IMG/VR virus record: IMGVR_UViG_3300005201_000716
Reading direction: 5' to 3' (one strand)
Length of the DNA: 64,000 bases
DNA from: an uncultured virus (IMG/VR IMGVR_UViG_3300005201_000716)
Taxonomy: Duplodnaviria; Heunggongvirae; Uroviricota; Caudoviricetes
Position numbers and translations under genes: made by a program. The notes under the pieces were generated by a model. That model made no database searches, was not told the DNA's origin, and saw nothing but the letters and a program-made list of their open reading frames with translations. Shown piece after piece: positions 8,874 through 63,146 of the stretch. Numbering within the stretch: the first letter of the stretch is position 1; every line of letters starts with the position of its first letter.

Positions 8874-9046
8874 CGGGTTTGACGGGTTTTTGACGGGTTT
8901 GAGTTTGGACTATGCGCCGTGTTCACAGGCTTTTGACGGGTTTGACGAGTTTTTTCTATTTTTTGCGCAAGTCCAGAGGGGTGAGTGCATAAGAAAAAAT
9001 TTAACTTATATATAAGGAGTGGAAATTTCCTGTCAAACCCGTCAAA
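8869..9046. repeat. iteron-like TTTGACGGG repeats, probable replication origin
   Basis: TTTGACGGG at 8869, 8878, 8889, 8932 and variant at 8941; inverted copies CCTGTCAAA/CCCGTCAAA at 9029-9046; AT-rich palindrome CTTATATATAAG between them. Confidence 0.7.
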
Positions 9047-9064
9047 TTTTAAGGGGTATGTTTT

Positions 9065-9349
9065 ATGGCCGAGAAGGACATCACCAACGCAATAATGCGA
9101 TATTTAAAGACCGTTCCTTGCTGCTTTTGCTGGAAACAGCACGGCGGGCAATACGGGACGGCCGGCTTGCCCGATATAATACTTTGCTTTAACGGGCGCT
9201 TCGTGGCGTTTGAGGTAAAGACGCCATCGGGCAAGCTAACTAAGCTACAAGAGACTACGATAACAAAGATTATAGCCGCAAAGGGCGAAGCCTTCAAAGT
9301 TACAAGTGTCGAAGAGGTCAGGGAGATTATTAAAAACCTTAACACTTGA
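9065..9349 (+). CDS. VRR-NUC domain nuclease
   Basis: EKDI, GLPDI, AFEVKTP..G..T.LQ motifs. Confidence 0.9.
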   Translation: MAEKDITNAIMRYLKTVPCCFCWKQHGGQYGTAGLPDIILCFNGRFVAFEVKTPSGKLTKLQETTITKIIAAKGEAFKVTSVEEVREIIKNLNT

Positions 9350-9365: not shown

Positions 9366-9569
9366 ATGGATAAACATATACGTTGTATCAGTTGCCGCTT
9401 CGCACGGCCTGATAAGAAAGCGAGCGATAGAGGCTGGACGGCTTATGAGTGTGGTAACCCTGAAAGCGAGTACCACAAAGCCTTGTTGAATGTTACCCCC
9501 ACCGGTGAAAAACAGTACAGGATAACTTGGAGTGGGTGCGAGTATGGCGAGAGGAGGGAAAAGCGATGA
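9366..9569 (+). CDS. small Cys-rich hypothetical protein
   Basis: RBS AGGAGG; CxxC...C...C. Confidence 0.7.
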   Translation: MDKHIRCISCRFARPDKKASDRGWTAYECGNPESEYHKALLNVTPTGEKQYRITWSGCEYGERREKR

Positions 9570-10006
9570 CGGCTTACGAAAAAACAAGTGAAGTAATCTC
9601 CGCAATTAAAAAATATGACAATATGCGTGACATCGTGGCAAGTACGCCCGATGAAATAAAAGCGCATTACGACAGGCTCACCGCTCCGCATACTCCTGTA
9701 CTCGACGGAATGCCGAAAACACACAATCCTAATTCCGGAGAAGTAAGGCTTGTTAACGGTCTTGATTTAATCAACACAATTCAAGAGCGTTTCAGGAACG
9801 CGCAACTCTTCGTGGAGTGGTTCGAACCGATGTGGAATGCGTTGTCGACTGATGAACGACGGTTGCTCGAAACATATAAGCATACGGATGTCTATGCCGG
9901 TTCAATAGCGGAGCTTACGTCAGAATTTAGTTATTCCTCTCGTCAACTGCGTCGTGTCAGGCAAAAGGCGTTACGACGTTTGGAAATACTGCTGTACGGT
10001 TATTAA
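9566..10006 (+). CDS. RinA/ArpU-like late transcriptional activator (sigma-70 region 4-like C-terminus)
   Basis: WFEPMWNALSTDERRLLE and C-terminal HTH-like RRVRQKALRRL..LLYG; last gene before the packaging module. Confidence 0.75.
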   Translation: MTAYEKTSEVISAIKKYDNMRDIVASTPDEIKAHYDRLTAPHTPVLDGMPKTHNPNSGEVRLVNGLDLINTIQERFRNAQLFVEWFEPMWNALSTDERRLLETYKHTDVYAGSIAELTSEFSYSSRQLRRVRQKALRRLEILLYGY

Positions 10007-10141: not shown

Positions 10142-10202
10142 TATGCGAAAGGTGGTTCCGTGTTACACTTGTATCATGAAAATATAGCAAAAGCAGAGGA
10201 GG

Positions 10203-11400
10203 CTTTCCGGGCCGGAGTTGTTTGGTATTGTCGGTGGCGTTAACAATCCCGGACAATCTCGTACACCTTGGCGCTTTCTGGGCAGTAGATGTTAGGTATT
10301 GTCGGTGGCGTTAACAATCCCAGACATTCCCGTACCCTTCGGCGCTTTTCGGGCGGTAGATGTTAGGTATTGTCGATGACGTTAACAATCCCGTACACCT
10401 TGGCGCTTTCCGGGCGATAGATGTTTGGTATTGTCGATGGCGTTTACAATCCCGGACAATCTCGTACCCTTCGGCGCTTTCCGGGAGGTAGATGTCAGGT
10501 ATTGTCGGTGGCGTTAACAATCCCGGACAATCTCGTACCCTTCGGCGCTTTCCGGGCCGGAGTTGTTTGGCATTGTNNNNNNNNNNNNNNNNNNNNNNNN
10601 NNNNNNNNNNNNNNNNNNNNNNNNNNNNNNNNNNNNNNNNNNNNNNNNNNNNNNNNNNNNNNNNNNNNNNNNNNNNNNNNNNNNNNNNNNNNNNNNNNNN
10701 NNNNNNNNNNNNNNNNNNNNNNNATTGTCGATGGCGTTAACAATCCCGGACAGTCCCGTACACCTTGGCACTTTCCGGGCGGTAGATGTTAGGTATTGTT
10801 GATGGCGTTAACAATCCCGGACAATCTCGTACCCTTCGGCGCTTTTCGGGCCGGAGTTGTTTGGCATTGTCGATGGCGTTAACAATCCCAGACAATCCCG
10901 TACACCTTGGCTCTTTCCGGGCGGTAGATGTTTGGTATTGTCGATGGCGTTAACAATCCCAGACAATCCCGTACACCTTGGCTCTTTCCGGGCGGTAGAT
11001 GTTAGGTATTGTCGATGACGTTAACAATCCCGTACACCTTGGCTCTTTCCGGGCCGGAGTTGTTAGGTATTGTCGATGGCGTTTACAATCCCAGACAATC
11101 CCGTACCCTTCGGCGCTTTCCGGGCGGTAGATGTTAGGTATTGTCGATGGCGTTTACAATCCAGTACACCTTGGCTCTTTCCGAGCCGGAGTTGTTTGGT
11201 ATTGTCGGTGGCGTTAACAATCCCGGACAATCTCGTACCCTTCGGCGCTTTCCGGGCGGTAGATGTTAGGTATTGTCGGTGACGTAAACAATCCCAGACA
11301 ATCTCGTACCCTTCGGCGCTTTCCGGGCGGTAGATGTTTGGAATTGTCGATGGCGTTTACAATCCCAGACAATCTTGTACACCTTGGCGATTTCCGGGGC
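10203..11400. repeat. non-coding tandem array of 71-bp (and 61-bp) units
   Basis: Unit starts at 10203, 10274, 10345, 10406, 10477, 10548, [gap], 10771, 10842, 10913, 10984, 11045, 11116, 11177, 11248, 11319, 11390; consensus CTTTCCGGGCGGTAGATGTTAGGTATTGTCGATGGCGTTAACAATCCCGGACAATCTCGTACCCTTCGGCG. Confidence 0.97.
10577..10723. other. assembly gap (147 N) inside the tandem array
   Basis: run of N. Confidence 1.
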
Positions 11401-11858: not shown

Positions 11859-12275
11859 TTACTCATTGTGATTATTCAAAAAATCCACTGGTGAAATCGC
11901 TGGTACAATTGAATTTTCAAAGTGCTTGGTATTACGCGTAATGATATATTCTGCTTTTGCTTTTTTTGCACAAACGGACACAAGAGCGTCCTCGTAATCG
12001 CTGATGTCGGGTTCCAATGCGTTCACGCAATCGGTTTTATCCACGCCACCGATTTGAAAAGCATTCAGCAGTTTCTCTATAACCTCTTTTGCTTTAATCG
12101 GATTTTGTAGCGCCTTTCGCGTGACGTAGTAGATATCCGTGATTGTACTGGCTGTGAGCCATATCTTGGCTTTTCCAATAATTAACCAGTCAAGGCAGGC
12201 GAGAGCGTCCTCGGCAAAAGGCTCGCGTTTAAGCACGTAGTCAAGAATCACATTGGTGTCAATCAACACAGTCAT
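11859..12275 (-). CDS. PIN-domain (VapC-like) toxin
   Basis: VLIDTNVILD, DYEDAL, IITRN..F motifs. Confidence 0.9.
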   Translation of the reverse strand: MTVLIDTNVILDYVLKREPFAEDALACLDWLIIGKAKIWLTASTITDIYYVTRKALQNPIKAKEVIEKLLNAFQIGGVDKTDCVNALEPDISDYEDALVSVCAKKAKAEYIITRNTKHFENSIVPAISPVDFLNNHNE

Positions 12276-12510
12276 ACCGCTTGCTCCTTTCCTCGTGGAT
12301 TGCGGCTTTAATACCGTCATCGTCCATACGTGATAAGTCGGTATCGGCGAGGATGCCGAATAGCGAACGGACGTCTGACAGCGTATCGTCCTCTTCCCTC
12401 ACGAGTTTAGCAATCTTGCGACCGTTGCGGGTTATGATGATGTCCTCGCCTGCGGCCATATCAAGGTATCTGCCTAAATTAGTTTTAAACTCTGTTGATG
12501 AAACAAACAT
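12259..12510 (-). CDS. Phd/YefM-family antitoxin
   Basis: VSSTEFKTNLGRYLD...EDIIITRNGRKIAKL; overlaps the toxin start. Confidence 0.92.
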   Translation of the reverse strand: MFVSSTEFKTNLGRYLDMAAGEDIIITRNGRKIAKLVREEDDTLSDVRSLFGILADTDLSRMDDDGIKAAIHEERSKRYDCVD

Positions 12511-17328: not shown

Positions 17329-19569
17329 ATGAATAAGCAATTGACGCTCGGTTCACTCTTTTCAGGGTCTGGCGGTTTTGAACTTGGCGGCTTGCTCTGT
17401 GGGATAGAACCGGTATTCGCTTCAGAAATCGAGCCGTTTCCAATACGGGTTACGACAAAACGCCTGCCGCAGGTCAAGCATCTCGGCGACGTCAATAAAA
17501 TAAACGGAGCAAATATCCCGCCTGTAGACATAATCACGGCGGGATTTCCTTGTACCGACGTCAGTTGCGCCGGACGCCGCGCTGGGCTTCACGCCGAGAG
17601 GACAGGACTGTTTTTCCAAGCTATCCGTGTTATCCGAGAGATGCTCGAAGCCACAAATTATGAATTTCCGAAATTTCTATGCTTTGAAAATGTTCCGGGG
17701 CTTTTATCCTCAAATAAGGGAGCCGACTTCTGTGAAGTTATGGACGAGATTGCCGGACTTGGATTTATATCCGATCCTAACATACTTGACGCGCAGGACT
17801 TTGGCGTAGCGCAGCGCAGGAAGCGTGTATATATCGCATCAGTAAACCGGAAGTATTATAATCCCGCTGTTTTTGCCGACGCGCCGAAATCCCGCGATAA
17901 GCGTATGGAAAAAGCTGTAGCTTTATGGGGCGGCGAGACCTTTTACGGAATTGCCAGCCGTCCGTATACTCCGGTGAAACAGAAGCTGACGGAAATACTT
18001 CAAAACGCTGTTGACTCGAAATATTATCTATCAACTGCGGCTTGCCTCGGCATCCTTCGCCGCGCAAAAGCGCGGGGTAAGGAATTGCCGAAACTGCTCC
18101 GTGTCGCTCTTGAATCGCAAGCGATGCATATTGACGGCGCCGCTCCGATTGATGCAAAAGCCGAAGTGTGTATCTTAAACGACCAAGGCGGCGGCTTCAT
18201 GAATTTATCGGAAAACATAACGGGTACGCTGCGCTCACAGGAACACGGGCATCAGCCTATCGTGTTTGAACCGGGCGCGATTTCGCGGCTTGGCGGCCAT
18301 TGCTGGGAGGGCGAGCCTACGGGCGCACTCCGTGCTGATATGGGCGATAACCGTATGGCTGTCGCTATAGAAAATTATCCAATCGACGGCCGCATAAAAT
18401 TACGAGACGATGATTTGGTGCAAACACTAACTGCCCGATGTGGGACTGGCGGTATGAATGTTCCACTCGTTATGAACGAGCGGCAATATGCGCTGACGGC
18501 CGGTGAGGATGTGGCAAACACACTCACCGGAACGGACTATAAAGGTACACAATGTGTGTTCATCCCGTCCGAAGCTGACGAGATACCTAAATCGGCGGCG
18601 TTTATGGGCGGTCAGGGTTCAGACGCGGGAAGTATCGCATATAGTGAAGATACCGCGCCAACGCTCCGAAGCGAAGCGGGCGGCAATTCCGTGCCTATGG
18701 TGATGTATTCACCCGTCGTATTTGACGGAAAACAAGTCACCTCAAAAGATAACCGGAGCAATCCGAAACCGGGCGCCCCCTGCCATACGCTGTCTTCCGG
18801 CAGCGCCGACAGCGCGGTTGTGTGCCTGCAAGGGAATATGATCGGGCGTAAGCCTGAAAACGGTCCCGAAGGTAGCGGCGTCAACGATGATGTGGCGTTC
18901 ACACTTACCGAAGTCGACCGCCACGCTGTCTGTTATCAGGATGTTGTAAGCCCGTTGACTACAGAACTGGCGCATCAGACTGGTACTCACGGTCAAATCG
19001 GCGGTCAGTTAATTGTTGAGGAGCATCATAGCCCGATTTGTTATCAGGATGTTATTGGTACACTGGCCGCTTCGGATTATAAATTTCCACAGCAACAACA
19101 GATTTTTGAAGGTAAAGCTATTGTGGAATGTGAGGCGATTGAAAACTACCGGCACAGCGAATATCGCGAAAGCGAGACGGCGGGAACGTTAAAACAGTGC
19201 GGCGGCACGAACGGCGGCGGCAGTGAAACCGTTATCGTTGAAAATCGTTATGTGGTCAGACGGCTCACTCCGACCGAATGCGCTCTTTTACAAGGTTTCC
19301 CGTCTGATTGGTGTACAGAGCTTGAAACGCCGGAGCCGAGTGATGAGGATATAGATTTTTGGTCTGAGGTTTGGGAAACCAACCGTATTATAATAGGAAA
19401 ATCCTCAAAACCAAGAAGCAGGAACCAAATTATTAAATGGCTAAAAGACCCATATTCCGATTCAGCGGTCTATAAAATGTGGGGAAACGGCATCTGCCTC
19501 TGGTGCGCGGTTTTTGTTCTTGCCGGGATTGTGTCATATACACAAAACCAGAGCGCGTTTTTGCCTTGA
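17329..19569 (+). CDS. C5 cytosine DNA methyltransferase with expanded multi-TRD variable region
   Basis: SLFSGSGG, GFPCTD, ENVPG, QRRKR, RRLTPTEC..LQGFP, YKMWGNG. Confidence 0.93.
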   Translation: MNKQLTLGSLFSGSGGFELGGLLCGIEPVFASEIEPFPIRVTTKRLPQVKHLGDVNKINGANIPPVDIITAGFPCTDVSCAGRRAGLHAERTGLFFQAIRVIREMLEATNYEFPKFLCFENVPGLLSSNKGADFCEVMDEIAGLGFISDPNILDAQDFGVAQRRKRVYIASVNRKYYNPAVFADAPKSRDKRMEKAVALWGGETFYGIASRPYTPVKQKLTEILQNAVDSKYYLSTAACLGILRRAKARGKELPKLLRVALESQAMHIDGAAPIDAKAEVCILNDQGGGFMNLSENITGTLRSQEHGHQPIVFEPGAISRLGGHCWEGEPTGALRADMGDNRMAVAIENYPIDGRIKLRDDDLVQTLTARCGTGGMNVPLVMNERQYALTAGEDVANTLTGTDYKGTQCVFIPSEADEIPKSAAFMGGQGSDAGSIAYSEDTAPTLRSEAGGNSVPMVMYSPVVFDGKQVTSKDNRSNPKPGAPCHTLSSGSADSAVVCLQGNMIGRKPENGPEGSGVNDDVAFTLTEVDRHAVCYQDVVSPLTTELAHQTGTHGQIGGQLIVEEHHSPICYQDVIGTLAASDYKFPQQQQIFEGKAIVECEAIENYRHSEYRESETAGTLKQCGGTNGGGSETVIVENRYVVRRLTPTECALLQGFPSDWCTELETPEPSDEDIDFWSEVWETNRIIIGKSSKPRSRNQIIKWLKDPYSDSAVYKMWGNGICLWCAVFVLAGIVSYTQNQSAFLP

Positions 19570-19685
19570 TATTTGGTGGATTTATTGTCACATTTGGCCT
19601 TGCTATATGTTTAGTTTAGAGCGAATATGTGGTTACCGAAAGGGTGCCAAGCCCACGGAATACAAGGAAAACGGAGGTAACGAAC

Positions 19686-20744
19686 ATGAAAATCAATTAC
19701 AACGTAACTGGCGCAGAGCGCAAATCGCTGGTCGGCGCAATCAGCAAGGAACTGAACGCTCCGACAAAATACCTCGGAATGCCGACGGCGGCATACGAGG
19801 TGGGTGAATACACCATCGACAAGACCGGCACGGTAACCGGTCCCGACAATCCCTACTTAATTGAACACATTTCCGGCTCCTACAGCCTAACTCCGGAAAA
19901 CGTGGAGTACGACGCTCCGCCAACGGAAACAACAGAAAACCCGGAAGCGCCAGCCTTCGAGGATTTACAGCTTACAGAGCGCGAGGAACTGGGGCTTGGA
20001 CGTGAACGCCGCGATTATCCCGGCGAAGACGGGATGCAAGCAAGCGATGTTCCGGACGACGATGAGGAATGCCCCGACGTCGACCGACAGCAGCCTGACC
20101 ATTGTGCCGACCCGGACGCCCCGGTAACAGAGGAAACAGAGAATCAAGCCGAAGAATCTCCGCCGCCTGAAACGCACGGCAGTGAGAATGACAGCCTCAT
20201 AATCGAAATGCCGCTCACGGGTTTTACACCGGAAAAACTCGACAACCTCACAAAGTTGGTTGGCGCCAAGGCCCCGCTGCTCAAAGTGGCGCTCGGTGTG
20301 GATGACTTGCCGATACAACAAACTGAGGAAACGCTTCGGTTCCCTTGGTTCTGGCCGGAAAGCATTCTGACGGGCGAGGAGGTCACGGCTTACTCCACGC
20401 TTATCAGCCTACTTTGCAAAACAGCGAAGGAGAAAAAACGCGTCACCGCCAAAGAAAAAGAAGTCAAAAATCCGAAATTCGCCATGCGGTGCTTCCTGCT
20501 TTCACTCGGCTTTATCGGCGACGAGTACAAGGTTTCGAGAAAAATCCTGCTTTCCAAACTGGAAGGAAACTCAAGCTGGAAAAACGGTAAAAAAGCTGAT
20601 GCGCCGACCGAGATGGAGAATTTTAACACCGAAGGGATAGAAGCCGCTTTTAGCGAGGCACACACGCCGCCTGAAAACGTAGGCGCGTTAACTTACCCGG
20701 AAGATGGCGGCAGTTTTGAAAACGAGGTGACGGATGGTGAATGA
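19686..20744 (+). CDS. phage 'virulence-related' protein with acidic insert
   Basis: NVTGAERKSLV..I..., YLGMPT.AY N-terminus; NPKFAMRCFLLSLGFIG C-terminus; own promoter at 19600. Confidence 0.75.
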   Translation: MKINYNVTGAERKSLVGAISKELNAPTKYLGMPTAAYEVGEYTIDKTGTVTGPDNPYLIEHISGSYSLTPENVEYDAPPTETTENPEAPAFEDLQLTEREELGLGRERRDYPGEDGMQASDVPDDDEECPDVDRQQPDHCADPDAPVTEETENQAEESPPPETHGSENDSLIIEMPLTGFTPEKLDNLTKLVGAKAPLLKVALGVDDLPIQQTEETLRFPWFWPESILTGEEVTAYSTLISLLCKTAKEKKRVTAKEKEVKNPKFAMRCFLLSLGFIGDEYKVSRKILLSKLEGNSSWKNGKKADAPTEMENFNTEGIEAAFSEAHTPPENVGALTYPEDGGSFENEVTDGE

Positions 20745-21153
20745 AATAATATCAAAAGGCGCTCTCGAGGCGCGCCGGGCGCAATACGCGCCCGGCGCAC
20801 GGGTGGAGCTCATTTCTATGAGCGACCCGTATACTAATTTGAAACCCGGCGAAAAGGGCTGGGTTACAGCAGTTGATGCCATAGGTACGGTTTTTGTGGA
20901 TTGGGACAACGGCTCTGCGCTCGGAGCCGCATATGGCGCCGACGAGATTAGGTTGCTTACCAAAGCCGAGGTCATTAAGGAACAATGCCGCAAAGTGGCG
21001 GCGACGGCTCGGACAAATATGTTCAACACGAAAGCGGTGTTCGAGATTGCTGTTGAGATGGGGTTTGACGAATTGGCGGACTTCATCTTTATGAACACCA
21101 AGAGTTACGGCGCCCTGATTCTGACCGGCGAACTGGACGACACGGAAATATAA
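20734..21153 (+). CDS. DUF4314 + DUF5049-like fusion protein
   Basis: Y.PG.RVEL.SM.DPY, VD..GT..V.WDNGS.LG; C-terminal TNMF...V..IA..MGF.EL. Confidence 0.75.
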   Translation: MVNEIISKGALEARRAQYAPGARVELISMSDPYTNLKPGEKGWVTAVDAIGTVFVDWDNGSALGAAYGADEIRLLTKAEVIKEQCRKVAATARTNMFNTKAVFEIAVEMGFDELADFIFMNTKSYGALILTGELDDTEI

Positions 21154-21317
21154 GAACTCCTGTAAATTACACAATTCCCGCTTCGATATCAGCCTGAATA
21201 TTTGTCACATTTATGTCGCCTTTATTTTCACATATGGCCTTGCTATTAATCCGCTTTAGAGTGATATATGTGTATGCCGCAAGGCAAACAAAAACACTCT
21301 CGAAAGGGGAAAACGCA

Positions 21318-22217
21318 ATGTTTACACAAAAATTCGGAATCGAAATCGAATTCACTGGAATCACAAGGAACGAGGCGGCGAAGGTAGCCGCCGAGTACCT
21401 CGGAGGAACGGTCACAAACGCGGGCGATTATTACGGCACCCAAAAGGTAACGGCGCCTGACGGCAGGGTTTGGAAGTTTATGAGCGACGGCTCAATTGCC
21501 TGCCACCGCAGGGAAAACCGCCAAAAGGTCAGCGCGGGCAGGGAGTACAGCGTGGAGTTGGTAAGCCCCATCCTCACCTACCGCGAGGACATCGGAACGG
21601 TTCAGAAATTGGTCAGGCGGCTCCGCAAAGCCGGAGCTTTCGCAAACGAAAGCTGCGGTATCCACATTCACTTAGACGGCGCGCCGCACACGCCGAGGAG
21701 CATCCGCAACTTTATGAACATCATCGCGAGCAAGAACGACCTTTTTTACAAAGCCCTGCAGATTGCCCCTGAGCGGATGAGATATTGCAAAAAGATGGAT
21801 GAGTATTTGGTGAGCAAGATGAACAGCCGCAAGCCCAAAACCATAAGGGCGATTGAAGAGATTTGGTACGCGGGATACAGCGATAACCGCCAAACCCACT
21901 ACCACGACAGCCGCTACCATTTTTTGAACCTCCACAGCTTTTTCACCGGCAACCACACGGTCGAGCTTAGAGGCTTCAACAGCGAATTACACGCCGGCAA
22001 GGTGCGAAGCTACATTGTTTTAGCCCTTGCCCTTAACAATCAGGCGCTCACCCAAAAGAGCGCCTCGGCAAGGAAGCCGCAAACCGAAAACGAAAAATTC
22101 GCGATGAGAACCTACCTCAACCGCATCGGATTTATCGGCGAGGAATTTGCAAACTGCAGAGAACATTTGACCGCCAACCTTGACGGCTCGGCGGCCTGGC
22201 GATTTCGGGCAGCCTGA
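21318..22217 (+). CDS. amidoligase-2 family (COOH-NH2 ligase)
   Basis: FGIEIE, WKFMSDGSI, VELVSP, SCGIHIH, RYHFLN, TVELRGF. Confidence 0.9.
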   Translation: MFTQKFGIEIEFTGITRNEAAKVAAEYLGGTVTNAGDYYGTQKVTAPDGRVWKFMSDGSIACHRRENRQKVSAGREYSVELVSPILTYREDIGTVQKLVRRLRKAGAFANESCGIHIHLDGAPHTPRSIRNFMNIIASKNDLFYKALQIAPERMRYCKKMDEYLVSKMNSRKPKTIRAIEEIWYAGYSDNRQTHYHDSRYHFLNLHSFFTGNHTVELRGFNSELHAGKVRSYIVLALALNNQALTQKSASARKPQTENEKFAMRTYLNRIGFIGEEFANCREHLTANLDGSAAWRFRAA

Positions 22218-22255
22218 GCTGCCCGTTGGGAAAAAGCGAAAGGAGCGTAATAAAA

Positions 22256-22735
22256 ATGAGTAAAGGATACAAATATTACATCGCATACGGTTCAAACTTG
22301 AACCAACCGCAAATGGCGAACCGCTGCCCCACGGCACGGCTCGCCGGGGCATCTGAAATGAACGGCTACCGCCTCTTGTTCAGAGGCGCGCACGCGGGCG
22401 CTGTGGCGACCGTGGAGCCGCACAAAGGCGGTAGCGTACCCGTATTGGTATGGGAGATAACGCCCGATGACGAGGCGGCGCTCGACCATTACGAGGGCTT
22501 CCCGTTTCTCTACCGCAAGGAAAAGGTTAAGGTCAAGTTAGACGGTAAAACGGTCACGGCAATGGTTTATATTATGAACGTGGAAATGCCCGCGGACTGT
22601 TACCGGCCGCTCGGACAGCCAAGCGCATATTATTACACAGTCATCCTCGAAGGTTACAAGGACGTGGGCTTCGACATTGATATCCTGCGGAAAGCCACCA
22701 CCGATTCAGCGGAAATAGAACATGTAATTTCTTAA
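22256..22735 (+). CDS. gamma-glutamylcyclotransferase (AIG2-like)
   Basis: YIAYGSNL..QM..RCP, LDHYEGFP.LY. Confidence 0.92.
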   Translation: MSKGYKYYIAYGSNLNQPQMANRCPTARLAGASEMNGYRLLFRGAHAGAVATVEPHKGGSVPVLVWEITPDDEAALDHYEGFPFLYRKEKVKVKLDGKTVTAMVYIMNVEMPADCYRPLGQPSAYYYTVILEGYKDVGFDIDILRKATTDSAEIEHVIS

Positions 22736-22883
22736 GGTTTATGCCGCTTTTGTATCAAATTCTCCTGCAATTTTTCAAGGTTTATTTCCACATAATACCT
22801 TGCTATAGTGTGTACCTTATGGCAATATGCGTATACCGAAAGGGGAAAACCTACGGAATACAAAAAAAATGGAGGAAACGAAC

Positions 22884-23237
22884 ATGAAGCTTATCGAAAT
22901 TGCAGATGAACAGAAAGACCTTTTAAACGAGGATAGGAACGCCCACTTCGCAGTCTGGCAGGAGACACAGAAAGACGGCAAACGCGGTTGGTTCACACTG
23001 GATATTCTCTTGTTTGACGATTACGATGACATTGCTGGGGAAAAAAGACACCTCGCGGAAATAGTTACGAGCGATAGCAACGCGATTTTACTAACCGGCT
23101 CCTGCTTTGCCGAGTTTGGCTCGGCAGACGAACCGCTGAGTGCCGCGAACGTTGCCAAAGGTATCAAAAAACACTACCTTACGCACGACGCGCTTATCAG
23201 CGATTACCTTAAGAGCGAAGAACTCAGAGCATTTTAG
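22884..23237 (+). CDS. acidic hypothetical cassette protein
   Basis: own promoter (22800), RBS GGAGG, followed by the conserved hairpin. Confidence 0.8.
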   Translation: MKLIEIADEQKDLLNEDRNAHFAVWQETQKDGKRGWFTLDILLFDDYDDIAGEKRHLAEIVTSDSNAILLTGSCFAEFGSADEPLSAANVAKGIKKHYLTHDALISDYLKSEELRAF

Positions 23238-23464
23238 AGTGAGAAACAAAAACCACGAAAACAACCGAGGCAGACCCGAAAGGGGCTGTTCCTCGTATAA
23301 ATAGAGTTTCAAAGCCACTGTTATTATATACAAATATGGCGGCTTTTATTGCGCGGATGATTGGTGGATTTATTTTCACATATGGCCTTGCTATTAATCC
23401 CGATTAGAGCGAATATGTGTGTACGCCGCAAGGCACACAACATTTTTTCAAGGAGGTCATCACC

Positions 23465-23677
23465 ATGACAAACCAACTTCATCTGAACCAAACGGTACGC
23501 AACTTTGGCATCCTTGCCAAGATAACCGGTTTCCACGAAATCACGGGTGACCCGATACTCCGCCCGCTCTGGAACGACGGCGCCAAATGGCTCGCCGACG
23601 CCGCCAAATGCGAGCCAGTGGACGAAACAACCACCGAGGTTTTACGGCACAAAGACGGTTTGGTAAGCATCGGATAA
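23465..23677 (+). CDS. small hypothetical cassette protein
   Basis: own promoter (23388), RBS AAGGAGGT. Confidence 0.8.
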   Translation: MTNQLHLNQTVRNFGILAKITGFHEITGDPILRPLWNDGAKWLADAAKCEPVDETTTEVLRHKDGLVSIG

Positions 23678-23959
23678 GCCGGGGCTCACAGTCAAGCCAA
23701 CCGTCGAGAAACAGCCCAAAATGGGCTGTTTCTCGTATAAATAGGGTTTTATAGGAGGCTTCAGTGGAGGTCTTTTTTATTGTTGTTTTACATAACCTAC
23801 AATTTCTTAAGATATTTGCCATTTTTGCGCCCGTATCTCCTGCAGTTTCTCAAGGTTTATTTTCACATATGGCCTTGCTATAGTGTGTATCCTATGGCAA
23901 TATGCGTATACCGAAAGGGAAAACCCCACGGAATACAAAGATGAACGGAGGAAACGAAA

Positions 23960-24223
23960 ATGACAAACAAAACACAGAACAACCTGACAAACGCTTTTAT
24001 TAAGGCACTGAAGTATTACGATGAGGATTTCACAGAAACACCGGTACTAAAAAAGAGAGTTAGGCGCGCAATCCTTGAAACACCGAGATGCGAAGGATAC
24101 TTAAGCGACATCCTTAAAACAGCGATCGGCGATGTGTATACGGACGGAGATTGCTACGAATTAGCAAAAAATATTTGGATGGATAACAGCCGGATTTTAC
24201 CACCTACAAAAAAATACGCATAA
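23960..24223 (+). CDS. small hypothetical cassette protein
   Basis: own promoter (23875), RBS GGAGG. Confidence 0.8.
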   Translation: MTNKTQNNLTNAFIKALKYYDEDFTETPVLKKRVRRAILETPRCEGYLSDILKTAIGDVYTDGDCYELAKNIWMDNSRILPPTKKYA

Positions 24224-24441
24224 CAAAGAATAACACAGTAATCGAAGCGAATAGCCCTAATCAGGGCTATGCCTCGTAACTGACGAACCGCTGTAATATA
24301 CACAATTACAGCGGCTGTGTATCTTAATATATTTGTTGAATATATTATCTCATATTGCCTTGCTATATATCCGGTTTAGAGCGAATATGTGTATGCGGAC
24401 GGGAAAACCGCCGCAAATAAACAAAAACGGAGGAAGGGAAA

Positions 24442-24663
24442 ATGAGAGGAACGGTCAGAAACGGCGGATGCGTAAGCCAGTCGACCTACAGCGCGCTTCA
24501 GGCGCGCAGGCGCAAAGACACGGCGGAGTACATTATCCACGAAGGCAAACGCTACGAATACCGCAGCGACACACAGATTTTCAGGCACGATGCTACAAGG
24601 CTCACACGGATTAAAAAAGCCGAATGGCTCGCAATCAAAGCACAGCATAAGGAGGAGAAGTAA
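24442..24663 (+). CDS. small basic hypothetical cassette protein
   Basis: own promoter (24360), RBS GGAGG. Confidence 0.7.
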   Translation: MRGTVRNGGCVSQSTYSALQARRRKDTAEYIIHEGKRYEYRSDTQIFRHDATRLTRIKKAEWLAIKAQHKEEK

Positions 24664-24900
24664 ATGTGGTCAGAAGGAATCATCGCAAGCCCGACGACGG
24701 GCAACAAGTACAAGTATTGGGTCAAGCACTACGAGGAAGGCTCGGAATTCGGGATTGACGGAGGTAAGGTAAGCAAACTCACCATCCGCAAGGTTGGCGA
24801 AACCAAAGACCTTGTCAACTACGACAGAGGTTGGGACGTTTTGCCAAAGGGAGACGAGATTACGGTAGTTTACAACATCGTCAAATCCAAGTACAACTAA
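24664..24900 (+). CDS. conserved small Firmicutes-phage protein
   Basis: MW.EG.I, YWVKHYEEGS.FGIDGGKVSKL, NYDRGWD motifs; RBS AAGGAGG. Confidence 0.85.
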   Translation: MWSEGIIASPTTGNKYKYWVKHYEEGSEFGIDGGKVSKLTIRKVGETKDLVNYDRGWDVLPKGDEITVVYNIVKSKYN

Positions 24901-24909
24901 AAATGAAAA

Positions 24910-25580
24910 CAACGGAGGTTCACCCCGAAAGGGGCTGTTCCTCGTATAAATAGAATTTTGGAAGGGACTTCTGCGGGAGTCTTTTTAATTTCAATTTTAT
25001 TATGTGCAATTTCTCAAGGTATTAGTCACTTTTTCGCTCATATCTCCTGCAATTTTTCAAGGTTTATTTTCACATATGGCCTTGCTATAGTGTGTATCTT
25101 ATGGCAATATGCGTATACCGAAAGGGAAAACAAAAAAAGACAAGGAGGAAACGAAAATGACGAAATTTGAAGTAGGTTATGCAATGATAGTTGATGGAAA
25201 GAAGGTAACACGCACAATTAATGTGTACGCCGAAAATAGGCTGATGGCAAAACTCGAAGCCCGAAAGAAAGCACCGAAGTTTAAAGACGATTTCGAATGG
25301 GTCATTGAGCTCAAAGATTAATCGAAAGCAACGGAGGTTCACCCCGAAAGGGGCTGTTCCTCGTATAAATAGAATTTTGGAAGGGACTTCTGCGGGAGTC
25401 TTTTAATTTCAATTTTATTATGTGCAATTTCTCAAGGTATTAGTCGCTTTTTCGCCAATATCTCCTGCAATTTTTCAAGGTTTATTTTCACATATGGCCT
25501 TGCTATAGTGTGTACCCTATGGCAATATGAACATACCGAAAGGGAAAACACACAAAAAAACAAGGAGGAAACGAAAATGA
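24910..25580 (+). repeat. two near-identical ~250-bp intergenic direct repeats (24910-25160 and 25329-25580)
   Basis: each copy = hairpin + terminator + promoter + RBS + ATGA; only a few substitutions and indels. Confidence 0.95.
25157..25321 (+). CDS. 54-aa hypothetical cassette protein
   Basis: promoter 25082, RBS AAGGAGG. Confidence 0.75.
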   Translation: MTKFEVGYAMIVDGKKVTRTINVYAENRLMAKLEARKKAPKFKDDFEWVIELKD

Positions 25581-25747
25581 AATTTTACTTAAACAACAAG
25601 AAGGTCAGCCGGAAAGCCCTCGAAGAGAAATTTGGCAAAGAAAAGATAGCCCAACGCATTAAGGAAGCCAAAGAAACTTGGAGCGAAGACCCCTTGACAG
25701 AGGTTTCATGGGCAGACGGAATGAGAATTGAACACGGGCTTTACTAA
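25577..25747 (+). CDS. 56-aa hypothetical cassette protein
   Basis: promoter 25500, RBS AAGGAGG. Confidence 0.75.
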   Translation: MKFYLNNKKVSRKALEEKFGKEKIAQRIKEAKETWSEDPLTEVSWADGMRIEHGLY

Positions 25748-25875
25748 AAAAGAAACAGCAAAGCGAAAACAGCCGAGGCAGACCCCCAACGGGGCTGTTC
25801 CTCGTATAAATAAATTGTTGAACGAGACTTCCACGGGGGGTCTTTTTTAATTGCGCCGAAAGGAGAGCGGCCGCC

Positions 25876-28503
25876 ATGCGAAAACTGGAAAAATATGAAC
25901 CAACATTATATATGGCTGACGGCTCGGCTTACGACAAGACCGCCGCCGACAAAGCCGTCAGCTTCATTGAGTGCTTGAAACACACCAAAGGCGAATGGTA
26001 CGGGCGAAACTTTGAGCTCATCGACTGGCAGGAGCAAATTATCCGTGACGTTTTCGGCATCCTCAAACAAAACGGTTACCGTCAGTTTAACACGGCGTAT
26101 GTCGAAATACCAAAGAAGCAGGGCAAACAACTCGCTTTAGATACGCTTATTCCAACGCCAGACGGGTTTAAAACAATGGGTATAATCGAAGTTGGTGACA
26201 CGGTGTTTGACGAATGTGGCCGGCCTTGTCAGGTAGTGGCAAAAAGCGCTGTGGATTACTCTGAGCGAGCTTATCGGATTACCTTTAAGGACGGCGCTGT
26301 TATTGAGGCAGGTGAGAATCATCAATGGTACGGTGAGTATACGCACGGTAAGCCTCGTCATCACATTTTTACCACCGGAGAATTATATCGTTTACCGCGC
26401 GAAGGTAATTGTCTGCGGTTTAGGATACCCATTGCCGCCGCTATTGAAACATCAGATGCCATCCTGCCTGTAGAACCATACCTTTTCGGTTATTGGCTTG
26501 GTAATGGAAATGCTGTAAAACCGGAAATTACTATTAAAACGGACGACACTGCGGCTGTGTTGCGTCACATTATCTATAAGAATGAAATCTCCGGCGCTTG
26601 GGAAAATATCGGCGACAGCTTGGTTTTTCGAATTCCAGCGTTGAAAGATATATTGCTTAACAGTTTTCGCGATAAAGTAATCCCGCATATATACCTACGC
26701 GCGTCCAAATCACAACGCTTCAAGCTATTACAAGGACTTATGGATTCAGATGGCGCGGTCAGCGAGCGAAAAGGGCAGGCGATATATACATCCACTGAAA
26801 AGGCACTGGCAAACAGTGTCAGTGAATTACTGTGGAGTCTCGGTATAAAAAACGCGGTTACCACTGCCGCGTCTACTCAGCGCGCGGACTGGTCAAAGCC
26901 GAGTGTCGAATGCGGTAGAGTATCGACGGGCGAAACACTATATTATGTAAAATTCACCGCTTTTGACGACCTTCCGGTATCTGGTATTTATCGTAAGCTA
27001 ATACGGTCGGTTTCCCGAAACCCACATACACGGAGTCATTATCGATATATTGATAAGATTGAAGCTATTGCAAACAATGGAATGCAGTGTATACAAGTCG
27101 ATAGCCCGTCCAGCCTCTATTTGGTAGGACGTTCCTTTGTCCCCACACATAATAGCGAGCTCGCGGCGGCCGTCGCGCTCTTGCTTACCTGCGGCGATTT
27201 CGAACACGGCGGTGAGGTGTACGGCTGCGCGTCCGACCGCCAACAGGCGAGCATCGTCTTTGACGTAGCGGTGAAGATGGTGGAACAATGTCCGGCGCTT
27301 AAAAATCGTGTCAAGCTGATGATATCCACAAAACGGATCGTATATAAGCCGCTTGGTTCTTTTTATCAAGTGCTTTCGGCGGAGGCTTATACAAAACACG
27401 GACTGAACGTCCACGGCGTGGTTTTCGATGAGCTCCACAGCCAACCGGACAGGAAACTGTTTGACGTTATGACCCACGGCTCCGGCGACGCCCGGAAACA
27501 ACCGCTGTACTTTTTGATTACCACAGCGGGGACGGATACACATTCAATCTGCTATGAACAGCATCAAAAGGCAAAGGATATCCTCGAAGGCAGGAAAACC
27601 GACGCCGCGTTTTACCCGCTGATATACGGCGCGGAGGATACCGAGGACTGGACGAGCGAAGCGGTCTGGCGAAAAGCCAATCCTTCACTCGGTATAACGG
27701 TGGAAATAGATAAAATCCAATCCGCCTGCGAATCGGCAAGGCAGAATCCCGCGGAGGAGAACTTGTTCCGGCAATTACGGCTCAATCAGTGGGTAAAACA
27801 ATCCATCCGCTGGATGCCTATGGAAAAATGGGACAAATGCAATTTCCCTGTGGACGCCGCCGCGTTGGAAGGACGCGTCTGTTACGGCGGATTGGATTTA
27901 TCCTCCACCATCGACGTTACGGCGTTTGTGCTGGTGTTCCCGCCTGTTGACGAGGATGATAAATACACCGTCCTTCCCTATTTCTGGCTGCCTGAAGATA
28001 ATCTACCGCTGCGCGTCAAACGCGACCATGTCCAGTATGACGTGTGGGAAAAACAAGGTTATTTAAAAACCACGGAAGGAAATGTTGTTCATTACGGCTT
28101 TATAGAGGGCTTTATTGACGAGTTAGGCGCTAAATATAACATCCGTGAGATTGCCTTTGACCGCTGGGGCGCGGTGCAGATGACACAAAACCTTGAGGGC
28201 TTGGGCTTCACTGTGGTTCCTTTCGGTCAGGGCTTCGCGAGTATGTCGCCGCCGACTAAGGAATTGATGAAGCTGACATTTGAGGAGAAAATCGCCCACG
28301 GCGGCCATCCCGTGTTGAGGTGGATGATGGATAACATATTTGTCCGTACCGATCCAGCCGGCAACATCAAGCCGGATAAGGAAAAGTCCACAGAGAAGAT
28401 AGACGGCGCCGTGGCGCTGATAATGGCGCTCGACAGGGCTATCCGCTGTGGCGGTCAAACGGTCGGCAGTGTTTATGACGAGAGAGGCGTGATTTTTATA
28501 TGA
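25876..28503 (+). CDS. terL: terminase large subunit interrupted by an intein (533-aa extein)
   Basis: Walker A PKKQGK|SE split by the intein, VVFDELH, ITTAG, GLDLSST, KIDGAVA. Confidence 0.97.
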   Translation: MRKLEKYEPTLYMADGSAYDKTAADKAVSFIECLKHTKGEWYGRNFELIDWQEQIIRDVFGILKQNGYRQFNTAYVEIPKKQGKQLALDTLIPTPDGFKTMGIIEVGDTVFDECGRPCQVVAKSAVDYSERAYRITFKDGAVIEAGENHQWYGEYTHGKPRHHIFTTGELYRLPREGNCLRFRIPIAAAIETSDAILPVEPYLFGYWLGNGNAVKPEITIKTDDTAAVLRHIIYKNEISGAWENIGDSLVFRIPALKDILLNSFRDKVIPHIYLRASKSQRFKLLQGLMDSDGAVSERKGQAIYTSTEKALANSVSELLWSLGIKNAVTTAASTQRADWSKPSVECGRVSTGETLYYVKFTAFDDLPVSGIYRKLIRSVSRNPHTRSHYRYIDKIEAIANNGMQCIQVDSPSSLYLVGRSFVPTHNSELAAAVALLLTCGDFEHGGEVYGCASDRQQASIVFDVAVKMVEQCPALKNRVKLMISTKRIVYKPLGSFYQVLSAEAYTKHGLNVHGVVFDELHSQPDRKLFDVMTHGSGDARKQPLYFLITTAGTDTHSICYEQHQKAKDILEGRKTDAAFYPLIYGAEDTEDWTSEAVWRKANPSLGITVEIDKIQSACESARQNPAEENLFRQLRLNQWVKQSIRWMPMEKWDKCNFPVDAAALEGRVCYGGLDLSSTIDVTAFVLVFPPVDEDDKYTVLPYFWLPEDNLPLRVKRDHVQYDVWEKQGYLKTTEGNVVHYGFIEGFIDELGAKYNIREIAFDRWGAVQMTQNLEGLGFTVVPFGQGFASMSPPTKELMKLTFEEKIAHGGHPVLRWMMDNIFVRTDPAGNIKPDKEKSTEKIDGAVALIMALDRAIRCGGQTVGSVYDERGVIFI
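26128..27153 (+). mobile_element. 342-aa class-3 intein with LAGLIDADG homing-endonuclease domain
   Basis: starts QLALDT, block B ENHQW, block F MQCIQVD, ends PTHN|S; EN motifs GYWLGNG and LQGLMDSDG. Confidence 0.92.
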
Positions 28504-49626: not shown

Positions 49627-49638
49627 AGGGTGTGCGGC

Positions 49639-50412: not shown

Positions 50413-50416
50413 GTGT

Positions 50417-52950: not shown

Positions 52951-53145
52951 ATGGCATATTTTCAACATATAGCGCGGGATGCTTCGCCGAAGGGTTACGG
53001 CAAACTGCGCTCCATCACCGTCCGTCTCGTTATTCATAACTGCACAGGTGAAGTGTGGTTTACTGACCTTATGCTACAGGCAGGTTCACTTGCCACTGGG
53101 TGGGTCGGCCATATCTGTGAAATAAAGTGGACGATGGATGGGTGA
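52951..53145 (+). CDS. small tail-associated protein
   Basis: SITVRL...CTG.VWFTDLMLQ.G resembles the N-terminus of 55429-55995. Confidence 0.75.
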   Translation: MAYFQHIARDASPKGYGKLRSITVRLVIHNCTGEVWFTDLMLQAGSLATGWVGHICEIKWTMDG

Positions 53146-53756: not shown

Positions 53757-53862
53757 TAAACACAGCAGAAGAAAGCTATATTTTGACGATTGAATAAAAA
53801 ATCCGGCACCGTCAAAAGTAGCAACTTAAATACATTAAGGATAATAGAAGAGGAACAATACA

Positions 53863-54414: not shown

Positions 54415-54460
54415 TCTCTTCACCTTATTATACAAAGATGTAAATCAAATTCACAGATGG

Positions 54461-58463: not shown

Positions 58464-58610
58464 GCTCCGATTTTCGATGTGTGCTGGCTAAAAACACATA
58501 ATAAAGCAAATTTTTTTGTCACATTTATGTCATATCAATTTTCATATATAGCCTTGCTATATATCCCGTTTAGAGCGAATATGTACGCAACGGATGGAGG
58601 TGAATATCGT

Positions 58611-58841
58611 ATGAATAAGATAAGGCGTAAGGATTTACAGAAACTCGCCGATCAGGTGGATAAAATTCGTGACACGGTAGAGGAAATATTGAGCGAAGAA
58701 GAAGGATATCGTGACAGTATTCCCGAAAACCTTCAAAGCTCAGAAAATTATAGGTGTGCCAACGATGCAATTGACGCTTTAGGTGAGTCCATAAGTCATT
58801 TAAACGACGCCGTTGAGTACATTACAGGGGCTATAGTTTGA
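58611..58841 (+). CDS. small acidic coiled-coil cassette protein
   Basis: promoter motif at 58554, RBS GGAGGTG; MNKIRRK.L...EE...RDSIPENLQ. Confidence 0.8.
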   Translation: MNKIRRKDLQKLADQVDKIRDTVEEILSEEEGYRDSIPENLQSSENYRCANDAIDALGESISHLNDAVEYITGAIV

Positions 58842-58961
58842 AGCACATATCCAATTTTAAAACGGCGAGTGGTATCTTCTTTCTGAGGTTTCGTAAGCTG
58901 AAACACCCAATATGGCGTTCTCAGATTCTTAAGTAGGTCAAATAAATTGGAGGTTTTGATA

Positions 58962-59138
58962 ATGGCAATGACAAATGCGAGGAAAGCCGTCTACAAGAAA
59001 GGCTGGTGGCGGCGCGAGTCCAATGTTGACCGACGCAATCGCCGCCGGGAGCTCAACAAACGCATTCGACGCAGCGGTGATTTGTTGAGTGGAAATTACT
59101 ACAGGAAGATAACAAGCAATTTTGAAACAATGTCATAG
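58962..59138 (+). CDS. small Arg-rich protein
   Basis: RBS GGAGG; followed by the conserved hairpin (59152) and a terminator. Confidence 0.7.
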   Translation: MAMTNARKAVYKKGWWRRESNVDRRNRRRELNKRIRRSGDLLSGNYYRKITSNFETMS

Positions 59139-59291
59139 GAGCGACAAAAACCGAGGCACACCCCTAATTGGGGCTGTTCCTCGTATAAATAGAGTTTAAA
59201 CGGGACTTCTGTTGAGGTCTTTTTTATTTGTCTGGAAAAGGATAGCCCGTCAAAACGGTGGAATGTCATAAATTTTAAGGAGGCGCACGGT

Positions 59292-62920: not shown

Positions 62921-63146
62921 AAACGAAGCGGTCCTTCGTTATAAAACTTCGATGTCCGTTTTTAAAAGGTGGCGGGAACACGGATGGATATCAGGTGAGG
63001 AGTTACTGGCAATTGATACAATGCTCACCGAAAAATACGGCTTATCTTCGTGCAGTATATATCGCGAAAATGTCTTGATATTACAGGCAAACAGAGTGAT
63101 CTATAGTAGTACGAAAGGAGGAGCCTATGGAAAGAATTGTAACTAA
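62913..63146 (+). CDS. SHOCT-like small protein
   Basis: G.IS.EE...IDTML.EKY; typical position before a serine recombinase. Confidence 0.7.
   Translation: MGKNEAVLRYKTSMSVFKRWREHGWISGEELLAIDTMLTEKYGLSSCSIYRENVLILQANRVIYSSTKGGAYGKNCN

Follow-up and report, generated by a model that had tools for sequence, protein, structure and literature searches.

Promoter-like and hairpin borders of exchangeable small-gene units in a Ca. Heliusvirales-like Clostridia prophage

Between its methylase genes and terL, the prophage analysed here carries a run of mostly small, unrelated genes, standing singly or in pairs behind a common promoter-like sequence (P) and, in the later units, ahead of a common 3' hairpin (H). 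The question raised by this locus is which kind of system it represents and how its genes come and go: an integron-like array, as named in the original prediction, a counterpart of the PeSL (promoter early stem-loop) repeats of T4-type phages, or a set of morons. The window, in what follows, is the whole 64-kb stretch of DNA that was analysed.

Layout of the slot and its host element

Eight P lie in the slot between the methylases and terL, along with six H (five of them strong, the other degenerate), four terminators and seven small ORFs. Its unit plan consists of a shared promoter-like P, one or two genes and a shared H, and relatives exchange genes inside these borders. The features are the following:

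19539..19685, + strand: P1, class B; left half-site TACACAA at 19539, -35 TTGCTA at 19600-19605, -10 at 19623-19628, leader hairpin and RBS
19686..20744, + strand: 'vir' gene, 352 aa; variable N-terminus, C-terminal domain common with amidoligase (phrog_2443)
20734..21153, + strand: DUF4314-DUF5049 fusion, 139 aa
21200..21317, + strand: P2, class B, long -10 form GATATAT; -35 at 21240
21318..22217, + strand: Amidoligase_2, 299 aa
22256..22735, + strand: gamma-glutamylcyclotransferase (GGCT), 159 aa
22755..22883, + strand: P3, class A, TATG at -17..-14; -35 at 22800
22884..23237, + strand: stand-alone LPD15 domain, 117 aa
23249..23307, + strand: first H hairpin; canonical terminator not called
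23327..23464, + strand: P4, class B; -35 at 23388
23465..23677, + strand: ORF A, 70 aa; no family, homologues 70-84% identical in other arrays
23688..23776, + strand: second H hairpin with terminator (23753-23776)
23830..23959, + strand: P5, class A; -35 at 23875
23960..24223, + strand: ORF B, 87 aa, GC 40%
24226..24288, + strand: degenerate H hairpin (17.6 bits) closing the unit of 23960
24299..24441, + strand: P6, class B; left half-site at -60, -35 at 24360, strong leader hairpin
24442..24663, + strand: ORF C, 73 aa, basic; no family, 18 homologues at 74-91%
24664..24900, + strand: DUF7678, 78 aa
24897..24986, + strand: H hairpin with terminator; the first copy of a 258-bp repeat begins here
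25037..25156, + strand: P7, class A; -35 at 25082
25157..25321, + strand: ORF D, 54 aa, GC 39%
25316..25404, + strand: H hairpin with terminator; the second copy of the 258-bp repeat begins here
25455..25576, + strand: P8, class A; -35 at 25500
25577..25747, + strand: ORF E, 56 aa
25757..25844, + strand: last H hairpin with terminator, terL following 31 bp further on

The small ORFs of the original prediction hold for the later units, whereas the units at 19600 and 21240 drive conserved genes of 139-352 aa and have neither H nor terminator. The 3' hairpin that it had placed from 22884 onward, often with a terminator, is present as described, with terminator-like sites after four of the six H (23753, 24961, 25381 and 25824). 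The copies of the 258-bp repeat, around ORF D, are 94.6% identical, and exact runs of 26-76 bp are common to other units of the window. The distance from GGCT to terL is 3.6 kb here versus about 0.7 kb in most relatives.

This chassis is not confined to the slot: it also stands in the tail region, behind the capsid gene, behind the endolysin and ahead of the recombinase. Further copies in the window are:

58490..59227, + strand: ninth, isolated unit in the tail region; P -35 at 58554, H at 59135-59195, terminator-like hairpin
58611-58841, + strand: ORF F of the tail unit (phrog_4068)
58962-59138, + strand: ORF G of the tail unit
63074..63126, + strand: P-type promoter TTGATA-17-GATCTAT, preceding the large serine recombinase, whose start is at 63127

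This ninth unit (58553-59227) and the P at 63074 had been overlooked earlier. A P stands in front of the recombinase in the window and in front of 14 further proteins.

The host element is a Ca. Heliusvirales-like Clostridia prophage of gut type, with HK97-type head genes, a long tail, a serine recombinase and a TerL nearest to this clade. In tblastn, the C-terminal 449 aa of TerL gave 722-771 bits and 76-81% identity to the best 30 records, many of them from the NatCom/IMGVR series, and four matching records are filed as Ca. Heliusvirales; the available text of the clade's papers asks for over 700 bits with the clade's own TerL HMM, a scale different from these tblastn bits (PMC11283538, PMC9226167). 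Among the marker genes, the window carries those for the portal, Clp protease, major capsid, DNA polymerase A and SNF2 helicase, together with a VRR-NUC nuclease at E 7e-4, below its cut-off. The DUF2800 exonuclease and DUF2815 ssDNA-binding genes were not seen in the window, and the prophage may extend to the left of base 1. Deposited genomes of the clade have the slot too, with its amidoligase and GGCT genes and with P and H as found here, while the replication genes of this prophage stand in another order (PMC11283538, PMC9226167). Within that text, the defining paper describes the clade as widespread in human guts, the 2024 main text makes no mention of promoter, amidoligase or accessory, and the slot is not treated (PMC11283538, PMC9226167).

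The promoter-like element P and the hairpin H

All eight promoter-like elements of the original prediction were found again, and their sequences agree with its classes A and B. The motif CCTTGCTAT is present eight times in 19500-25900, whereas 500 Markov resamples contain it 0.006 times on average and once at most, and TTGCTAT starts exactly at 19600, 21240, 22800, 23388, 23875, 24360, 25082 and 25500. The P core, TTGCTA-17-(G/C)A(A/T)(T/A)A(T), is of sigma-A type and lies far from consensus at -12, and often also at -7; part of the invariance seen at G-14 and A-11 comes from the matrix itself. None of the eight P passes a generic sigma-70 scan (9-of-12 consensus), so that the designation as promoter-like rests on spacing and position rather than on a transcript. 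By eye, neither a lambda CII-type TTGC-N6-TTGC repeat nor sigma-54 spacing fits P. A metagenome scan with the long P pattern returned three short contigs. The leader stem-loops of the original prediction are present and sit after the predicted start, yet most are weak (z -0.2 to -2.1 in seven of eight units, with only 24393 reaching -4.3). H and its terminator are separate from them, 60-130 bp upstream of the next -35.

Upstream of P, a dyad ACACA-N18-TGTGT is found in 82 of 286 non-redundant P upstream regions, where shuffling gives 2 on average. In five divergent P pairs, each with a distance of 67 bp, the two members share a single dyad that is equidistant from both cores, and this symmetry implies a protein regulator. 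The dyad is thus probably a protein operator, as predicted from these patterns; in the window it is degenerate, with only the left half in three class B units and none in class A. Candidates for the regulator are DUF4314/DUF5049, an HTH-zinc-ribbon protein at 62492 and an activator-like ORF at 9527.

The H core, GGGCTGTTYCTCGTATAAAT, has six exact matches in the 64-kb window (five in the interval and one at 59171) and none in 100 shuffles. In an alignment shaped to fit the structure (A2), 82% of cells are paired, 10 of 12 pairs have double changes (71 distinct sequences) and covariation is 0.327 versus 0.115-0.154 when slid; on a plain alignment, RNAalifold recovers three inner pairs only. Folding of the 3' arm back on the RBS was rejected, since local pairing dominates (0.91-0.99, against at most 0.08 for leader pairing, in four mRNAs) and the local pair covaries.

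In integrons, promoterless cassettes are read from one Pc, with IntI nearby, and end in attC sites of the form RYYYAAC...GTTRRRY. The slot resembles such an array in its tandem unrelated small ORFs of variable order, each closed by an imperfect palindrome, and H might accordingly be an attC-like site-specific recombination site read by a phage or host recombinase: it follows the stop codon, is bulged, folds as DNA on both strands (z -2.0 to -3.9), and has a 3' arm, CTGTTYCTCGTA, more conserved in sequence than the 5' arm. However, each unit has its own promoter, neither IntI nor attI was seen in the window, and joints fall at two different elements, those on the left in P and not in a second H. 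Unlike attC, most copies of H end in CTCGTA, with A at that column in 85% and GTA far more frequent than GTT, and the G-T versus A-C counts (62 to 44) pick no strand. No tyrosine integrase or IntI was detected among the window's 60 main ORFs, where the serine recombinase is the sole recombinase found; no minus-strand ORF exceeds 275 aa. An Rfam scan of 8000-30000 yielded two chance-level matches only, and none for H. The integron-like mechanism of the original prediction is therefore very improbable, and the lack of an integron integrase and of attC points instead to shuffling at boundary sequences, as in PeSL and morons.

Exchange of genes among relatives

The loci compared were gathered by P, H, amidoligase or cargo queries, so that their counts are not population frequencies. 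Of the 153 complete intervals, 4 have no P, 18 have one, 93 two (the commonest state), 23 three, 10 four, 2 five, 1 seven and 2 eight, this extreme being represented by the window and one other interval. Several units are also present in a cultured, non-pathogenic lysogen, Ihubacter sp. rT4E-8 (L380/L381). P and H are family-wide, and two ORFs of the window recur elsewhere in other orders: the window reads LPD15, A, B, C+DUF7678, D, E, whereas L081 reads X, Y, Z, C+W, A, V, L352 reads DUF7678, Z, A, and L355 reads C+DUF7678, u, A, u. The alignment across related prophages suggested by the original prediction thus finds neither gene content nor order fixed while P and H stay constant, which favours the co-regulated, recombination-shuffled, PeSL-resembling cassette bank that it proposed.

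Comparison of 187 slot regions gave 49 pairs at least 88% identical on both flanks and with a differing terminal slot. Replacements account for 32 of them, and in 22 of these the differing stretch is bounded on the left by the P leader, 55-83 bp beyond the start of the -35, and on the right by H, although these 22 come from two clusters of seven loci, are not independent and perhaps represent three or four events. All 17 indels and the other 10 replacements are not consistent with both borders. A looser set of 270 pairs has 249 distinct left ends, of which 40 lie within P (16%, versus about 5% expected). An example is given by the loci L122 and L363, whose flanks share 97.1% identity across 4594 bp and 97.6% across 701 bp; one locus carries amidoligase-GGCT-DUF5049 and the other a homologue of ORF A with a 54-aa ORF. 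Because flanking genes could carry cargo along, homology ends at P and H mark cargo bounds and not crossover points.

The same borders would be expected if P and H were kept for expression only and selection retained just those captures with an intact promoter and 3' end, genes arriving by illegitimate recombination and units by local tandem duplication, then spreading through conserved flanks. Four class A promoters and the 258-bp repeat indeed resemble recent local duplicates, ORFs B and D have no homologue and a lower GC, and P arrays without detected H exist: nhmmer detects no H in 53 of 153 complete intervals (it undercounts H, as the covariance model found more), and H is also missing from L132 and L078, arrays of 5-7 P. 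Against this, the same ORFs, with their own leaders, are found behind array-specific upstream sequence, in other orders and in another genomic slot, which requires repeated moves with joints at P. When 32 P copies from nine arrays are compared, their upstream and spacer parts are more alike within an array (identity 0.62 and 0.57) than between arrays (0.47 and 0.43; 0 of 2000 permutations), whereas the leader follows the ORF (0.64 versus 0.50), the pattern expected from crossovers inside P. The expression-only account is therefore considered unlikely.

Among known systems, PeSL elements of the T4-type phages RB49 and phi1 combine a repeated promoter and stem-loop, flank small non-essential ORFs, and give mini-circles by recombination between neighbouring elements (PMC2839356, PMC4122927). 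In both systems, the repeated elements border small ORFs that vary within a hyperplastic region, and close relatives are set apart by gain, loss or replacement of ORFs at these elements (here in the 22 replacement pairs, from two lineages). In both, too, terminators shield neighbouring late genes and no dedicated recombinase is seen. The differences are that PeSL belongs to lytic T4-type phages and the window to a temperate Firmicutes siphovirus; that PeSL is one composite element with a sigma-70-consensus early promoter, whereas here two separate borders enclose the gene and P is far from consensus, with an upstream dyad; and that here the same promoter also serves the recombinase. Morons are likewise joined at short conserved boundary sequences in temperate phages (PMC3029335), and lie among late genes between their own promoter and terminator in some relatives only, a layout found in units A, C+DUF7678, D, E and the tail unit, whose neighbour genes adjoin in relatives. 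Unlike morons, the units here stand up to eight in tandem on one chassis, with a structured H besides the terminator and about 65 first-ORF cargo families common to the slots. No paper on the P/H element was found in the literature searched, supplements being outside its scope.

The explanation that we consider likely overall is that of P/H-bounded, moron-type cassettes moved by general recombination. Each would comprise P, leader, RBS, one or two genes, H and usually a terminator, which would keep transcription out of terL, with the conserved P and H as short left and right homology arms. It is highly probable, from comparison of relatives, that cargo is replaced between P leader and H in otherwise near-identical phages, and that unit number between methylase and terL changes from 0 to 8 while common ORFs change order. 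Swaps and tandem growth would then probably proceed by general homologous or homeologous recombination in arms of 26-258 bp, through double or unequal crossover and with no dedicated integrase.

Cargo, timing and meaning

The cargo is mostly of unknown function: a search keyed on P and H yielded 65 first-ORF families among 477 proteins. Elsewhere, LPD15 is the N-terminal domain of longer proteins, whose C-terminus, by eye, resembles the 'vir' domain. ORF B matched only itself among the proteins of 47-153 aa searched, ORF D has no homologue in the loci compared, and the ORF E family counts five distinct proteins directly behind P, also in post-endolysin arrays. The DUF7678 model, a beta-sheet with a helix, is confident (pLDDT 97), with nothing in Foldseek at E 0.001, a best Z of 5.0, no clear fold match and no PDB sequence match. 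ORF A is poorly modelled (pLDDT 59) and in the Atlas finds unnamed viral clusters and weak SH3-like leads, where ORF E has no match. ORF G has a look-alike in L223, a candidate counterpart. PADLOC matched 0 of 13 cargo proteins, NCBIfam gave none above cut-off, and no known defence or anti-defence family emerged from these or the fold searches. By blastn, 22700-25900 has no plasmid match and eight short matches in the phage collection.

P would probably act as a weak sigma-A-type promoter (TTGCTA, 17 bp, G -14, A -11), with a dimeric protein binding ACACA-N18(or 28-29)-TGTGT some 60-85 bp ahead of the predicted start. The likeliest targets of the cargo are the host or rival elements. As a promoter of this type also stands before the serine recombinase, the units would most likely be active during prophage establishment or maintenance, and we hold this timing, establishment or lysogeny, with modest confidence. 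The same cassette logic could instead serve a host-takeover or anti-defence regulon fired on infection, on the model of the SPO1 host-takeover module, rather than morons expressed in the lysogen. The small unrelated ORFs with strong RBS would suit this early lytic timing, as would the relatives' cargo (LPD15, DUF3846, DUF6900, Nmad4, a SLOG domain and a sigma-70 region-2-like protein), an integrase also being needed early; LPD domains are proposed, in the available text, to ease the early phase of invasion (PMC5512222). It appears the less probable timing, given a P core unlike the consensus PeSL promoters, a chassis at several genome positions, and an amidoligase-GGCT pair discussed, in the text available, as a possible surface modification against superinfection (PMC11318856). 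The early expression on entry that the original prediction tied to the nearby genome end gains no support from a chassis standing at several genome positions, nor does its candidate anti-defence role gain any from the PADLOC, NCBIfam and fold searches.

More tentatively still, P, dyad operator and H could form an order-wide plug-in standard, in which one dimeric regulator switches on the integrase and dozens of interchangeable small genes from a pool common to Heliusvirales-like phages and DGR-bearing Oscillospiraceae prophages, H being protein-bound and promoting exchange or controlling mRNA. Under the preferred explanation, P/H-bounded cassettes and general recombination, the locus adds a temperate Firmicutes phage to the cases of shuffling at short boundary sequences, and offers testable joints, an undescribed predicted operator and a structured element without Rfam match. 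The P-H pair is a handy marker for undescribed accessory phage genes, and the 65 first-ORF families are candidates for host-interaction screens; if the plug-in reading is true, the pair would point directly to undescribed anti-defence or superinfection-exclusion genes in phages of gut Clostridia.

Phage setting and layout of the array

The window holds most of the genome of a temperate siphovirus. Its gene content comprises an SNF2 helicase, DNA polymerase A, primase, HNH, terS, and two N6 and one C5 methylase, followed after the methylases by the studied interval (19540-25860), an intein-bearing terL, portal, Clp protease, capsid, tail, holin, endolysin, and a large serine recombinase. Over its C-terminal 449 aa, TerL shows 76-81% identity with the 30 best-matching phage records. 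Many of these come from the NatCom/IMGVR series, and the four of that series that were examined are filed under Ca. Heliusvirales. Ca. Heliusvirales are the subject of PMC11283538 and PMC9226167; the main text of the 2024 paper does not contain the words promoter, amidoligase, or accessory. Several features lie outside the interval:

10202-11398: tandem repeats (about 15 or more copies of 61-71 bp, about 83% matches), interrupted by an assembly gap (10577-10723), between an activator-like gene (9527-10006) and HNH, with promoter-like sequence near 10060 just before
11859-12510, minus strand: pair of a Phd/YefM antitoxin and a PIN toxin, an insertion that separates HNH from terS
25876-28503: TerL gene, whose intein has a LAGLIDADG domain; TerL of the relative L081 is without intein
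35424-38657 and 47074-52930: doubled tail module, with two tape-measure-like genes and two distal-tail and tail-endopeptidase sets
43562-46744: Kelch-repeat protein of 1060 aa, with the doubled tail module
53001-55000: low-GC island (32-34%) in the tail region, four ORFs without Pfam match

Speculatively, the tandem repeats may act as a structured leader of late transcripts, such as an antiterminator reading through cassette terminators.

All eight promoter-like elements (P) of the original prediction were recovered in the interval (class A at 22800, 23875, 25082, and 25500; class B at 19600, 21240, 23388, and 24360), against a mean of 0.006 by chance. That prediction had overlooked a ninth unit, which is complete and lies in the tail region, as well as a P in front of the window's recombinase. 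The core of the conserved 3′ hairpin (H) that closes P-ORF units matches exactly at six places in the window and nowhere in 100 shuffled sequences; the 23960 unit ends in a degenerate copy, and four terminators lie 3′ of H. The leader stem-loops are present as proposed but mostly weak, and the expectation of mostly tiny ORFs in every unit does not hold, as the first two units carry conserved genes of 139-352 aa. These two differ from the other six, having as cargo 'vir' (the 352-aa gene behind the first P), DUF4314-DUF5049, an amidoligase, and a gamma-glutamylcyclotransferase (GGCT), and no H.

Anatomy of the promoter and the hairpin

The register of the P core is fixed by its variants: TTGCTA, 17 bp, and then TAATAT, CATAAT, CAATAT, GAATAT, or the longer GATATAT. 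In the core, position -14 is G and position -11 is A, an invariance partly inherent in the matrix used. Class A copies show TATG at -17 to -14, which fits the TRTG motif of Bacillus sigma-A promoters. Upstream of the core lie two half-sites forming a dyad: TGTGT at -24/-25 and ACACA at -48/-49 or, displaced by another helical turn, at -59/-60. The dyad is found in 82 of 286 non-redundant upstream regions, against 2 on average in 200 shuffles. Five distinct divergent P pairs occur among 510 sequences (L404, L407, L409, L417, and L505), and in all five the cores are 67 bp apart with a single dyad equidistant from both. We infer that the dyad is a symmetric protein site. Its location 60-85 bp before the predicted start, together with the weakness of the core, suggests that the protein binding it would be an activator; phi29 p4 is an analogue for such an upstream-bound activator. 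Within the window, an intact half-site is seen in three class B units, always the left one alone; class A is without it. Read by eye, class A copies hold two CAATTTYTCAAGGT-like words about 43 bp apart where the dyad would be:

22740-22790: paired words, class A
23800-23865: paired words, class A
25005-25075: paired words, class A
25423-25493: paired words, class A

H lies 3′ of the stop codon and forms an interrupted stem of 12 pairs. When 59 copies are aligned plainly, pairing holds in 78.6% of cells and double changes affect 5 of the 12 pairs; in a model-fitted alignment of 71 distinct copies, the values rise to 82% and 10 of 12, with a covariation of 0.327 versus 0.115-0.154 for slid partners. 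The 3′ arm is better kept in sequence than the 5′ arm, and no Rfam family matches H. By nhmmer, an undercount, H was detected in 53 of 153 slots (methylase-terL gaps), many being without detected H. It closes P units at whatever genome position, including a unit after the capsid gene. The latter, with a sigma-70 region-2-like ORF, was seen in three contigs, compact elements in which terL, portal, capsid, and this unit are followed by recombinase genes:

L163, 4692-5306: sigma-70 region-2-like P-ORF-H unit
L164, 7342-7962: the same
L175, 5547-6185: the same

Cargo variation and its joints

Loci from relatives were gathered by scans with amidoligase (best 80 of 143 and best 80 of 284), H, P (loci among the matches listed), and the interval's small ORFs A and C, so that locus counts are not frequencies. 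The 254 loci with terL gave 196 distinct ones, 153 of them spanning methylase to terL. Among these gathered intervals, the number of P was 0 in 4, 1 in 18, 2 in 93, 3 in 23, 4 in 10, 5 in 2, 7 in 1, and 8 in 2. The commonest slot reads P-vir-DUF4314, P-amidoligase-GGCT-DUF5049, terminator, terL, and additional units carry DUF7678, DUF7698, Nmad4, DUF6809, DUF6900, DUF3846, and many unnamed ORFs. The window's ORFs A and C and its DUF7678 are found again in L081, L352, L355, L356, L358, and L370, in different orders and pairings. Relatives of ORF E lie behind P in DGR prophages, in which arrays of up to five P follow the endolysin; L404 encodes Avd and a reverse transcriptase, and L409 has its five post-endolysin P in a prophage adjoining rpsI. 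LPD15 stands alone in the window and forms the start of longer proteins elsewhere, and the homologue search with ORF B returned only itself.

Two further differences were seen near the slot. In L081, the other eight-unit array, an insertion-sequence-like element with two minus-strand ORFs lies between 'vir' and DUF4314 (6600-9170). Phage pairs such as L045/L046 and L011/L054, with 92-99% identity in the remaining sequence, differ in whether they carry the C5 methylase gene, which comes or goes as a 1.9-2.2-kb block with its right end 49-63 bp upstream of the first P core.

Joints were surveyed in 187 slot regions, using pairs with 88% identity or more in both flanks of a terminal-slot difference, which yielded 49 pairs (17 indels and 32 replacements). 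None of the 17 indel pairs has ends at P or H. Of the 32 replacements, 22 run from within a P leader on the left to H on the right, and these 22 represent two clusters of seven loci; in 27, H is on the right. In the clearest pair, L122/L363 (flank identity 97.1% and 97.6%), amidoligase-GGCT-DUF5049 is exchanged for an ORF A homologue and one ORF; therefore, even the 'core' unit is cargo. Looser limits give a weaker signal, with left ends in P in 40 of 249 versus about 5% expected. Across 32 copies from 9 arrays, uncorrected for relatedness and base composition, P upstream of -10 is similar to its array neighbors, and its leader to the one found with the same ORF in other arrays. In the sequences compared, a conserved chassis (P plus H) thus carries bounded, variable cargo. 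Homology arms in the window comprise 258 bp at 94.6% around ORF D and exact runs of 26-76 bp elsewhere; general recombination within them would lead to cargo replacement, loss, or tandem growth, and the terminators would shield terL from unit transcripts.

Expression timing, cargo function, and known systems

A single regulator may be common to the units and the recombinase, since P in four deposited genomes is confined to the methylase-terL slot, joined in two of them by the gene that follows the lysis module, and since it also precedes 14 recombinase-like proteins. Because of this putative P-linked regulator, expression when the prophage is established or maintained is somewhat more likely than a role confined to early lytic growth. 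The nearness to the genome end once invoked for early expression is a poor argument, as the chassis is found at four different types of position. The cargo had no match in PADLOC, NCBIfam, or solved folds. The available part of PMC5512222 counts LPD15 among possibly enzymatic domains and regards LPDs as likely helpers in early invasion, and that of PMC11318856 places amidoligase and GGCT in Clostridium prophages, with a possible anti-superinfection role.

The proposed likeness to integrons was not borne out by any of three integron tests. The PeSL (promoter early stem-loop) repeats of the T4-type phages RB49 and phi1, as described in the available parts of PMC2839356 and PMC4122927, resemble the array in their way of working, but differ in promoter type and phage group, so the analogy holds for function and not for identity. 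Morons (ORFs with their own promoter and terminator) with boundary sequences also work alike, according to the available part of PMC3029335. SPP1 has early units of dispensable small ORFs, for which the available part of PMC6316719 describes no shared borders of the P/H kind. A literature search that covered mostly open-access main texts turned up no account of P, the dyad, or H, and the P/H array is apparently undescribed in detail. The SPO1 module is a further comparison case. The array is real and family-wide, and it is a variant of already known phage gene shuffling.
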